NCBI GenBank assembly: GCA_963744145.1
Contig: CAVUSO010000001.1
Location: 1,870,831-1,934,830 of the forward strand
From: an uncultured cyanobacterium
GTDB taxonomy: Bacteria > Cyanobacteriota > Cyanobacteriia > Cyanobacteriales > CAWUOF01
Length of the DNA stretch: 64,000 bases
Direction: 5' to 3'
This document shows, piece after piece, positions 35,512 through 37,773 of this stretch (positions within the stretch are counted from its first letter, which is position 1; every line of letters begins with the position of its first letter). The notes under the pieces are model-generated. The model saw nothing but the letters and a program-made list of their open reading frames with translations, was not told the DNA's origin and ran no database searches. A program made the translations under genes and the position numbers.

Positions 35512-36561
35512 ATGAATGGCAAAAGTATATCTACAGTAGATCTATTTTGTGGTGCTGGAGGACTAACACATGGATTTGAGCAAGCAGGTCTTCCGGTCAA
35601 AGTTGGATATGATATTGATCCTGCTTGTAAGTTTCCATACGAATATAATAACCAAGCAAAATTTGTATTACAAGATGTGGAAAATATCAGTGGTCGTCAT
35701 TTAGCAGAATATTTTTCGGGCAGTAGTATTAAAATTTTAGTAGGTTGCGCTCCTTGTCAACCATTTTCAAGTTATTCAAGACGTTATAACGATAAAAAAT
35801 CAAAGTGGAAACTCTTGCAAGATTTTGCTCGTCTGATCGCAGAATGCGAACCAAATATTATTTCAATGGAAAATGTACTACAATTAAAACATCATCCAGT
35901 TTTTCAGGAATTTATCATCCAGCTAAAAAAGTTAAACTATTATTTTGAATCTTATGAAGTTAACTGTTTAGACTATGGAATTCCTCAATCTCGCAAGCGA
36001 TTAGTCTTGCTTGCTTCAAAATTTGGCAAGATTAATTTAATTCCCGCGACCCATCCGACCGAATTATACCAAACAGTACGACAAACTATTGAACACCTTG
36101 AGCCTTTGCAGGCAGGAGAAGTTTCTCAAATAGATTGGCTCCATAGATGTAGCAAGCTTTCGGAGTTAAATTTGCGACGGATTAGTGCTTCAAAACCTGG
36201 AGGAACTTGGCGAGATTGGTCGAAAAACTTAATTGCCAAATGCCACATTAAACAAAGTGGTAAAACCTATCCAGCAGTTTATGGTAGAATGGAATGGGAT
36301 AAGCCTAGTCCAACTATTACTACACAGTGTTTTGGTTTTGGTAATGGTCGCTTTGGTCATCCCGAACAAAATCGGGCTATCTCTCTTAGAGAAGCAGCTT
36401 TATTACAAACTTTTCCACCCACGTATCAGTTTGTTGCTGCTAATCAACCAGTATCGATCGACCTAGTTGGGCGCTTAATTGGGAATGCTGTACCAGTCAA
36501 ATTAGGTCAAGTAATTGCTGTTAGTATCCTCAATCATATTGAACAATTTAATCTAATTTAG
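35512..36561 (+). CDS. dcm: DNA (cytosine-5)-methyltransferase
   Basis: Motif I DLFCGAGGLTHGF, motif IV GCAPCQPFS, motif VI ENV, motif VIII QSRKRLVLLA, motif X GNAVPVKLGQVIA. Confidence 0.85.
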   Translation: MNGKSISTVDLFCGAGGLTHGFEQAGLPVKVGYDIDPACKFPYEYNNQAKFVLQDVENISGRHLAEYFSGSSIKILVGCAPCQPFSSYSRRYNDKKSKWKLLQDFARLIAECEPNIISMENVLQLKHHPVFQEFIIQLKKLNYYFESYEVNCLDYGIPQSRKRLVLLASKFGKINLIPATHPTELYQTVRQTIEHLEPLQAGEVSQIDWLHRCSKLSELNLRRISASKPGGTWRDWSKNLIAKCHIKQSGKTYPAVYGRMEWDKPSPTITTQCFGFGNGRFGHPEQNRAISLREAALLQTFPPTYQFVAANQPVSIDLVGRLIGNAVPVKLGQVIAVSILNHIEQFNLI

Positions 36562-36564
36562 ATA

Positions 36565-36650
36565 TCGGCGAAGAAGGGTGAAGCATTCGGATATAATATT
36601 AGTTCGTTTAAGTGATAAATTATCGCCCGAATGCTTCACCCCTACGCTTA
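36565..36650 (+). repeat. short MITE copy (same family as 28790-28948)
   Basis: GGTGAAGCATTCGGATATAATATTAG...TTAAGTGATAAATTATCGCCCGAATGCTTCACCC with terminal inverted repeats. Confidence 0.6.
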
Positions 36651-36666
36651 ACTAAAGCGCATTAAA

Positions 36667-37773
36667 TCATAATCTCCTAAGCAGTTGATCGCGAACATAT
36701 TCAATCCGCTTAATTACTTTAGGTCTAGAATTGCTTGCATCTGAAGTAGTATATTCTTTAAACTCCGGAGAATCAAGCCACTTAATTGACTTTGGTTCAA
36801 GATTACTTTTTTCCCTTAAAGCAAGTGCAACACCTACGGAAATTGCTTCAAATCGAATTCTTGGTGTTTTTACATTACCTTTTGATTTACTAAATCCATT
36901 AGGAAAATACTTCTCAACAAAGTCTAGCATTCGGTAAAACTCAGAGCGCATAACATCTTGGTCAATTCCATCATGATTATATTTTTCTAGATATTCATTA
37001 AGAAATTCATTAACCCTTCTATCAAAGTTTTTATAATTATTTAAGTAGGCAAAAAAACGTAGCACAAATTCTTCCGGTTCACGTTTGCGAATTAGTACAT
37101 CTGAGATAGGACATAGTTCTTTAAATTTAGAATTTTTAGCAAGTTCTTCCAGCAAATCCACAAACGGACCAGGAGATATTCCTCTACGTTTCTCCATATC
37201 ATTAAGTTCTACGCTACCAGTATTAATCCGTTCAAACATATCCCGTCTGGTTTCTTCGTCAGCTTTTTCCGTTAGAACAATCATGCGAATAGTAGCACGG
37301 TTGAAGCGTCTCTGTCTTGCTAATGGTAAATCGCTGAATTTGAAATTGTTAAGCTTCTTGAGTTTTTCTAATCCACAAAGTTTGAGTTCGTTATGAAGAA
37401 ATCTGTCTAAAGTACGGATTCGTTGTGTTCCATCAACAATTTCTAACCGAGCTAAATCATTCTCATTATCTTCTTGCTTTGGTCGTAAATCAGCAACAAA
37501 AATATAGGGTATAGGTAATCCTAGAAAAATAGATTCAATAAATTTTGACTGTCGGTTGTCTTCCCAAATCATATCTCGTTGATAGTCTGGTATAAACAAT
37601 TCACTGGTGTCATCATCTAGACCTTCTCTGTATTTCTGAACAAGCACTTCGACTGGATATTCTTTAGTATCATAGTCAACGGTTTTTTGCTTTTCCCGAA
37701 TTTCTATTTCTGCGGCTTCTTTTTGTTCATCTGTAATTTCCGGTTCTGGTGAATTTTTGGTAATTTTTGGCAT
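36667..37773 (-). CDS. DUF262 (ParB-like nuclease / GmrSD N-terminal domain) protein
   Basis: LEIVDGTQRIRTL matches the DGQQR motif of DUF262. 368 aa with no recognisable DUF1524/HNH C-terminal domain. Convergent with the dcm gene. Confidence 0.65.
   Translation of the reverse strand: MPKITKNSPEPEITDEQKEAAEIEIREKQKTVDYDTKEYPVEVLVQKYREGLDDDTSELFIPDYQRDMIWEDNRQSKFIESIFLGLPIPYIFVADLRPKQEDNENDLARLEIVDGTQRIRTLDRFLHNELKLCGLEKLKKLNNFKFSDLPLARQRRFNRATIRMIVLTEKADEETRRDMFERINTGSVELNDMEKRRGISPGPFVDLLEELAKNSKFKELCPISDVLIRKREPEEFVLRFFAYLNNYKNFDRRVNEFLNEYLEKYNHDGIDQDVMRSEFYRMLDFVEKYFPNGFSKSKGNVKTPRIRFEAISVGVALALREKSNLEPKSIKWLDSPEFKEYTTSDASNSRPKVIKRIEYVRDQLLRRL

Follow-up and report, generated by a model that had tools for sequence, protein, structure and literature searches.

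A convergent DUF262 and C5-methyltransferase gene pair in an uncultured cyanobacterium is probably the remnant of a three-gene HEPN cassette

In a 64-kb stretch of DNA from an uncultured cyanobacterium (the window, meaning all 64,000 nucleotides analysed), a gene for a C5 cytosine DNA methyltransferase and a gene for a DUF262 protein converge 105 bp apart. We interpret this pair as an eroded copy of a mobile cassette that consists of a DUF262 gene, a HEPN_MAE_28990 gene and a convergent Dcm-type methyltransferase gene, from which the HEPN gene has been deleted and whose remnant is probably disabled; we give this interpretation a probability of roughly 0.78. The apparent oddity of the locus, a DUF262 protein without a nuclease partner beside a methyltransferase, would then come down to ordinary gene loss in a defence island. 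The parts of the cassette in the window are as follows.

35461–35511, forward strand: conserved leader 5′ of the methyltransferase start codon and left edge of the cassette (blastn homology to other genomes recurrently starts at 35461 or 35465)
35512–36561, forward strand: C5 cytosine DNA methyltransferase (Dcm-type), 349 aa, intact (PF00145, TIGR00675, motifs)
36562–36666, no strand: 105-bp spacer and deletion site, where relatives have a HEPN_MAE_28990 gene of about 700 bp (gene order of relatives, junction alignment)
36576–36641, no strand: hairpin (MITE-like) repeat of 66 nt with 15-nt perfect inverted arms at 36576–36590 and 36627–36641 (DNA fold)
36667–37773, reverse strand: DUF262/ParB-like nucleoside triphosphatase (NTPase) domain followed by a helical NsnA-type (ParBDB) domain, 368 aa, intact (PF03235, NsnA model, motifs)
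37420–37434, reverse strand: DGTQR nucleotide-binding motif of the DUF262 domain (residues 114–118, read from the translation)

Results

Relatives of the pair carry a HEPN gene

A scan of one genome per species returned 53 related loci, 52 of them in cyanobacteria of many genera; the exception is a 25%-identity match in a Clostridium metagenome-assembled genome. At about 40 loci a methyltransferase of the same family, 70–87% identical to the window copy, converges on the DUF262 gene, across a gap of about 700 bp as against 105 bp in the window. This gap is filled by a gene for a protein of 232 aa. Its ATG usually overlaps the stop codon of DUF262 (ATGA), and at the 3′ end it abuts or overlaps the methyltransferase gene. 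Its product belongs to the HEPN_MAE_28990 family (PF18737, E = 1e-52 to 1e-53; the second-best family is PF18735) and has an RNDLAH (Rx4H) motif. Of the 53 loci, 47 have the HEPN gene directly 3′ of DUF262, and 34 have DUF262, HEPN and convergent methyltransferase all intact. One example of an intact trio lies in Scytonema NIES-4073 (AP018268, 1519915–1522760). An earlier reading made from the sequence alone had called the DUF262 gene stand-alone; this is correct for the window, where no HEPN gene was found, but the census identifies it as a secondary state.

The window copy is nested among relatives that carry the full trio. In a large protein collection the two closest proteins, 90% and 88% identical, are each part of a complete trio, and the nearest relatives, at 90%, 88% and 87–88% identity, all have the HEPN gene. 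Because these nearest relatives and distant outgroups alike carry it, the absence of HEPN in the window is derived; the opposite polarity, with a two-gene state ancestral and HEPN inserted elsewhere, was rejected on the same evidence.

Beyond cyanobacteria, trios of orthologous proteins occur on Klebsiella pneumoniae plasmid NZ_CP069825 (locus L055, 24488–27373; 53% identity for DUF262, 38% for HEPN and 55% for the methyltransferase), in Moraxella catarrhalis prophages (L059, Moraxella phage Mcat24) and, with a half-length methyltransferase, beside replication gene A of the Escherichia coli P2-like phage P2_4B2 (L058). E. coli IncF plasmids (L056) carry the DUF262–HEPN pair next to IS66 and without a methyltransferase, and a scan of IMG/VR for close relatives found none. 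The convergent linkage, seen in about 40 cyanobacterial loci, the Klebsiella plasmid and the Moraxella prophages, upholds the earlier proposal that the two window genes belong to a functionally linked, defence-type module and are not chance neighbours. In blastn comparisons with other genomes the cassette is homologous between about 35461 and about 37776, and since the flanking genes differ between genomes, the cassette is mobile. HEPN partners from five sources matched no PADLOC v2 model, PD-T4-2_B included, so the trio may go uncalled by PADLOC v2 for want of a model for this partner. No experimental test of a DUF262–HEPN–Dcm trio turned up in the literature searched.

Within the trio the HEPN proteins fall into two allelic types that are 53% identical (22 loci of type A and 12 of type B, among L001–L051; example gene coordinates are 7104–7802 in L002 versus about 7122–7781 in L006). 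Identity of the flanking DUF262 (79%) and methyltransferase (76%) proteins is no lower between the types than within them, which looks like swapping of an effector cassette inside a conserved frame. Two Hormoscilla loci (L009, 3447–3929; L010, 3296–3779) have an extra DUF262 5′ fragment (residues 1–162, 68–81% identical) about 2 kb upstream of a complete trio.

The HEPN gene has been lost between the two stop codons

In the junction alignment the window DUF262 gene keeps its normal stop (the TGA of ATGA), the stop of the methyltransferase gene is shifted by no more than a few codons, and the hairpin element lies between them. A tblastn search with HEPN over the window gave nothing (best E = 5.3). 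A possible HEPN 5′ remnant in the 26 nt after the ATGA was rejected, 622 of 2000 shuffles reaching its best score; because these 26 nt are not significantly HEPN-like, essentially the whole open reading frame (ORF) is gone. The alignment thus shows a HEPN deletion whose ends lie almost exactly at the stop codons of DUF262 and the methyltransferase.

Folded as DNA, the spacer hairpin reaches −23.5 kcal/mol (z = −6.5). Its terminal arms recur at 28802–28946 with one mismatch each, making four matches in the window against 0.28 expected. The recurring arms make the label of a repeat resembling a miniature inverted-repeat transposable element (MITE) a reasonable one, although just two copies turned up in 64 kb, with target-site duplication not established. 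The pair had been described as separated only by such an element; the hairpin with recurring arms is indeed present, but the spacer marks the loss of a whole gene that almost all relatives possess. The second member of the repeat (28802–28946) has the same terminal arms and a longer interior of short tandem repeats (GCCCTTCGACTAC three times and GCTCAGGG three times). A promoter and terminator scan of 35050–37950 gave counts not above those of shuffled sequence, and Rfam and tRNA scans of the neighbourhood found nothing.

Both remaining genes are intact

The methyltransferase aligns with positions 2–322 of the 324 in PF00145 (E = 1e-56) and also matches TIGR00675 (dcm). Motifs I, IV, VI, VIII, IX and X are complete in the translation (FCGAGG at residues 12–17, PCQ at 81–83, ENV at 120–122, QSRKR at 159–163, REAALLQTFP at 293–302 and GNAVP at 324–328), which agrees with the canonical set noted before and gives the protein the look of an active methyltransferase of type II restriction-modification (R-M) systems. 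Its specificity could not be inferred from its PDB matches (Dnmt1, M.HaeIII, M.HhaI) or database names, all of which are generic. Because residues 211–339, from the target-recognition region to motif X, are strongly conserved in the Klebsiella copy, the two enzymes may share a target site. Among solved structures this segment is closest to eukaryotic Dnmt1 (catalytic domain, E about 1e-19 to 1e-20), with slightly better scores than for M.HaeIII or M.HhaI.

The integrity of both genes raises the alternative that a two-gene remnant is still at work, with selection keeping both genes and the DUF262 protein acting as a DndB-like DNA-binding regulator, a reader of 5-methylcytosine or a sensor coupled to an unlinked effector. 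A single private change (Y to F) was counted in the DUF262 protein at family-invariant sites; in the methyltransferase, none was counted at sites invariant across 31 relatives. The ratios of nonsynonymous to synonymous substitution rates (dN/dS) against relatives, 0.105 for DUF262 and 0.157 for the methyltransferase, are not above those between intact trios (0.157 and 0.202, respectively). For DndB, a DUF262-family protein, a role in the negative regulation of Dnd systems has been described (PMC3632139). In addition, two independent deletions, one in the window and one in a Coleofasciculus locus (L031, with 30 codons left), have taken HEPN and spared both neighbours, which under continued two-gene function would reflect selection rather than chance. 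We regard this alternative as unlikely. Only two such cases stand against 34 intact trios, no family-wide architecture of DUF262 plus methyltransferase without HEPN was found, and the DUF262 gene is itself broken in other decayed copies (L002, L023 and L046). Moreover, synonymous divergence (dS) from the nearest relatives is 0.6–0.9, so the pairwise dN/dS values mainly record history before the deletion, and for both genes they show only a lack of visible decay.

Decay among the relatives is lopsided. A broken DUF262 gene, HEPN gene or both beside an intact methyltransferase gene occurs in seven cases (L002, L014, L023, L031, L044, L046 and the window), including L044, where a deletion fuses DUF262 to the 3′ half of HEPN; the reverse, a truncated methyltransferase with DUF262 and HEPN intact, occurs once (L037). 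Loss of DUF262 or HEPN before the methyltransferase is the order that would be expected if the methyltransferase protects against both, and tight linkage across phyla together with this biased decay favours such a protective role.

The DUF262 protein resembles a sensor rather than a nuclease

PF03235 (GmrSD_N) covers residues 45–197 of the 368-aa protein (E = 6e-29), with DYQRxxxW at 63–70 and DGTQR at 114–118; the DGTQR columns are invariant in an alignment of 37 sequences. The Pfam search found no DUF1524/HNH domain, whose lack the sequence-only reading had stated, and nothing else beyond PF03235. Among PADLOC models the best match is NsnA of Menshen (PDLC03877; residues 12–362, E = 1e-60), followed by PD-T4-2_A (residues 61–358, E = 2e-33). 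A PDB sequence search gave no meaningful matches. In an AlphaFold model (mean predicted local distance difference test score, 71) the C-terminal half is all-helical, and the top structural neighbours of the protein are BrxU and SspE. On these models the C-terminal half is a predicted helical NsnA-type domain, proposed to bind DNA and not a nuclease. According to Li et al. (2025, PMC12065111), NsnA itself joins a ParB-DUF262 NTPase domain to a helical domain, "ParBDB", for which DNA binding is proposed; DndB has this two-domain build too, as do GmrSD and SspE in their middle regions.

This composition bears directly on the earlier suggestion that the DUF262 protein is the restriction component of an unconventional two-gene R-M pair, its ParB-like domain cutting unmethylated DNA. 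The tight convergent arrangement is that of many type II R-M pairs, ParB-superfamily domains are termed nucleases in older comparative-genomics papers, and a PADLOC type II restriction endonuclease model gives a weak match (E = 4e-6) confined to the DUF262 domain. However, Pfam, PADLOC, the AlphaFold model and the structural neighbours reveal no nuclease fold beyond the ParB/Srx domain. In GmrSD, BrxU and SspE, DUF262 is an NTPase sensor of DNA modification that controls an attached nuclease, and cleavage by characterised DUF262 proteins is the work of a separate DUF1524 domain (PMC10952713; PMC12065111). Finally, the close relatives all have a HEPN gene as dedicated effector. A two-gene R-M pair is thus very improbable. 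The domain search of the C-terminal half yielded the helical domain and no cryptic nuclease, and the methyltransferase is part of a recognisable complete system that has lost its effector gene in the window. The companion proposal, a methylation-dependent type IV-like enzyme merely co-resident with an unrelated orphan methyltransferase of compatible specificity, would fit the DUF262 domain of modification-dependent GmrSD and BrxU and the response of Dazbog to phage C5 methylation, but it is hardly credible, as linkage with the same methyltransferase family is kept across phyla and is not chance, DUF262 is in this family always the first gene of a DUF262–HEPN operon whose 3′ end meets or overlaps that of the methyltransferase, and no DUF1524/HNH domain or other effector lies in the window.

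A proposed mechanism for the intact cassette

HEPN domains with Rx4–6H motifs are RNase toxins of abortive-infection and toxin–antitoxin systems. Because such domains are RNase toxins and DUF262 is an NTPase modification sensor elsewhere, we propose that the intact cassette, in the order DUF262, HEPN_MAE_28990 (its start overlapping the DUF262 stop) and convergent C5-methyltransferase, would follow the logic of restriction-modification with an RNase output. The methyltransferase would mark host DNA and so keep the sensor–effector pair quiet; the DUF262 protein, with its ParB-like NTPase and putative DNA-binding helical domains, would sense the state of the DNA; and the HEPN protein, through RNDLAH (Rx4H), would act as a toxic effector that cuts RNA and arrests the infected cell. 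The idea of methylase-linked ParB-DUF262 systems that target unmodified DNA has been raised by Li et al. (PMC12065111). Since the effector is missing, the module in the window should be inert as a defence and could no longer kill or defend. Its methyltransferase probably still methylates the chromosome in the manner of an orphan enzyme, and its DUF262 protein may still bind DNA and hydrolyse NTP, but with no output.

Several observations weigh against interpreting the window locus as a disabled remnant of such a cassette. By analogy, the direction of sensing in the trio could be the opposite, as Dazbog, whose first gene contains DUF262, is triggered by a phage C5-methylase, that is, by methylated DNA. 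Intact DUF262–HEPN pairs occur without an adjacent methyltransferase (L038, L041 and the E. coli IncF plasmids), so the methyltransferase is not strictly required in cis. Neither gene in the window shows relaxed constraint, which fits a recent deletion and continued two-gene function equally well. Some internal stops scored as decay may stem from misassembly of metagenome-assembled genomes, and the rest of the genome (7.6 Mb in all) could hold a HEPN gene that the window does not.

The cassette lies in a low-GC island beside argG

The island has a GC content of 0.34–0.37, against 0.40–0.46 in its flanks (argG and rhodanese-type genes), and the cassette adjoins argG (37875–39077, reverse strand) on the downstream side of that gene. 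Its borders and repeats, and a neighbouring gene pair, are as follows.

37830–37861, reverse strand: hairpin downstream of argG and directly 5′ of the DUF262 gene, right border of the island (sequence, repeat I1/D6)
34852–35079, reverse strand: second copy of the argG hairpin (34852–34883) and argG 3′ remnant (34909–35079), left border of the island (PF20979, repeat D6/I1)
35048–35338, duplicate at 33559–33824, no strand: repeat segment with 23-nt tandem units (families D1, D3, D4 and D5, 96–98% identity)
34150–34906, reverse strand: MNT nucleotidyltransferase, intact, and HepT, frameshifted with an internal stop (PF01909, PF01934)

The argG remnant matches PF20979 (Arginosuc_syn_C, E = 3e-16), has a 405-bp internal deletion and is 90% identical to argG at the nucleotide level (34927–35077 versus 38301–38451). 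Because the island thus lies between the argG 3′ end and a 90%-identical remnant with a second copy of the hairpin, its position suggests acquisition by recombination with foreign, argG-flanked DNA.

The sequence-only reading had placed the pair in an island with a toxin–antitoxin pair. The low GC bears out the island, and an MNT/HepT locus lies at 34150–34906, but HepT is a pseudogene. MNT (34517–34906, probable start 34807) matches PF01909 (E = 6e-14). In HepT (34150–34520), PF01934 matches a 64-aa ORF only; the remainder, with the RNILVHNY motif, is in a different frame and contains a stop codon, so that the pair lacks an intact HepT toxin with an Rx4HxY motif. The duplicated segment of about 270 bp, which has three to four tandem units of 22–23 nt (ATAGAATTTTATACGCTCACAAG), brackets a block of MNT, HepT and a lone DUF433 gene (33919–34149). 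The region as a whole is a patchwork of defence and toxin genes in decay.

Further out, the product of 30684–33317 (forward strand), 877 aa long, is homologous to the major vault protein of eukaryotes, unusual in a bacterium, and has Vault repeat domains 1–4 (PF01505, E = 3e-63) and an MVP shoulder domain (PF11978, E = 3e-52). Its gene is adjoined by one with a Tle1-like/DUF2235 phospholipase domain (28969–30066, reverse strand).

Discussion

The trio is conserved well beyond cyanobacteria, on a Klebsiella plasmid, in Moraxella prophages and, with half of the methyltransferase, in an E. coli P2-like phage; an intact trio from elsewhere is a better experimental target than the window locus. Such a trio bears on the question of whether it is methylation or its lack that DUF262 sensors read. 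Natural HEPN-less alleles and the biased loss of DUF262 or HEPN are usable hints of a protective methyltransferase.

Like type II R-M systems with a C5-methyltransferase, the window locus is a tight convergent pair on a mobile, low-GC island, and the partner side decays more often; unlike them, the partner in the trio is a two-protein combination of NTPase sensor and predicted RNase instead of a DNA endonuclease, and this RNase is missing in the window. GmrSD, BrxU and SspE share the N-terminal DUF262 fold and the DGxQR motif, whereas the window protein lacks the DUF1524 His-Me/HNH nuclease domain of those single-chain enzymes. Menshen NsnA (PMC12065111) supplies the best model for the DUF262 protein and has the same two-domain build, but no NsnB ABC-ATPase or NsnC effector is adjacent in the window, where the neighbours are argG and the methyltransferase.

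Two validated antiphage systems with DUF262, PD-T4-2 and Dazbog, are only sister groups of the trio. PD-T4-2 is a two-gene E. coli system with a DUF262 domain (PMC12065111; PMC10952713), listed under HEPN PF18735 (PMC10952713). Its PD-T4-2_A model covers nearly the full DUF262 protein and the trio HEPN also matches PF18735; however, the window has no HEPN or B gene, the trio HEPN is not matched by PD-T4-2_B, and PD-T4-2 is not described with a linked methyltransferase. Dazbog, a two-gene abortive-infection system, is similar in that its DUF262 protein is a presumed reader of the DNA methylation state, but the PADLOC scans gave no match to its DzbA or DzbB models at E ≤ 0.01, and the window module has its own C5-methyltransferase, which suggests a sensing logic opposite to or different from that of Dazbog.

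The closest counterpart is the MAE_28990-type operon of HEPN, ParB (DUF262) and DNA methylase genes, which has been defined by gene neighbourhood and not experimentally (Anantharaman et al. 2013, PMC3710099). The window DUF262 and methyltransferase genes are orthologous (70–90% identity) to those of about 40 cyanobacterial loci of this type, with the same convergence and the same cassette limits, but the window has a 105-bp spacer with a hairpin repeat in place of the defining HEPN gene. Because that defining feature fails, we file the locus as a degraded member of a known module and not as a new two-gene system.

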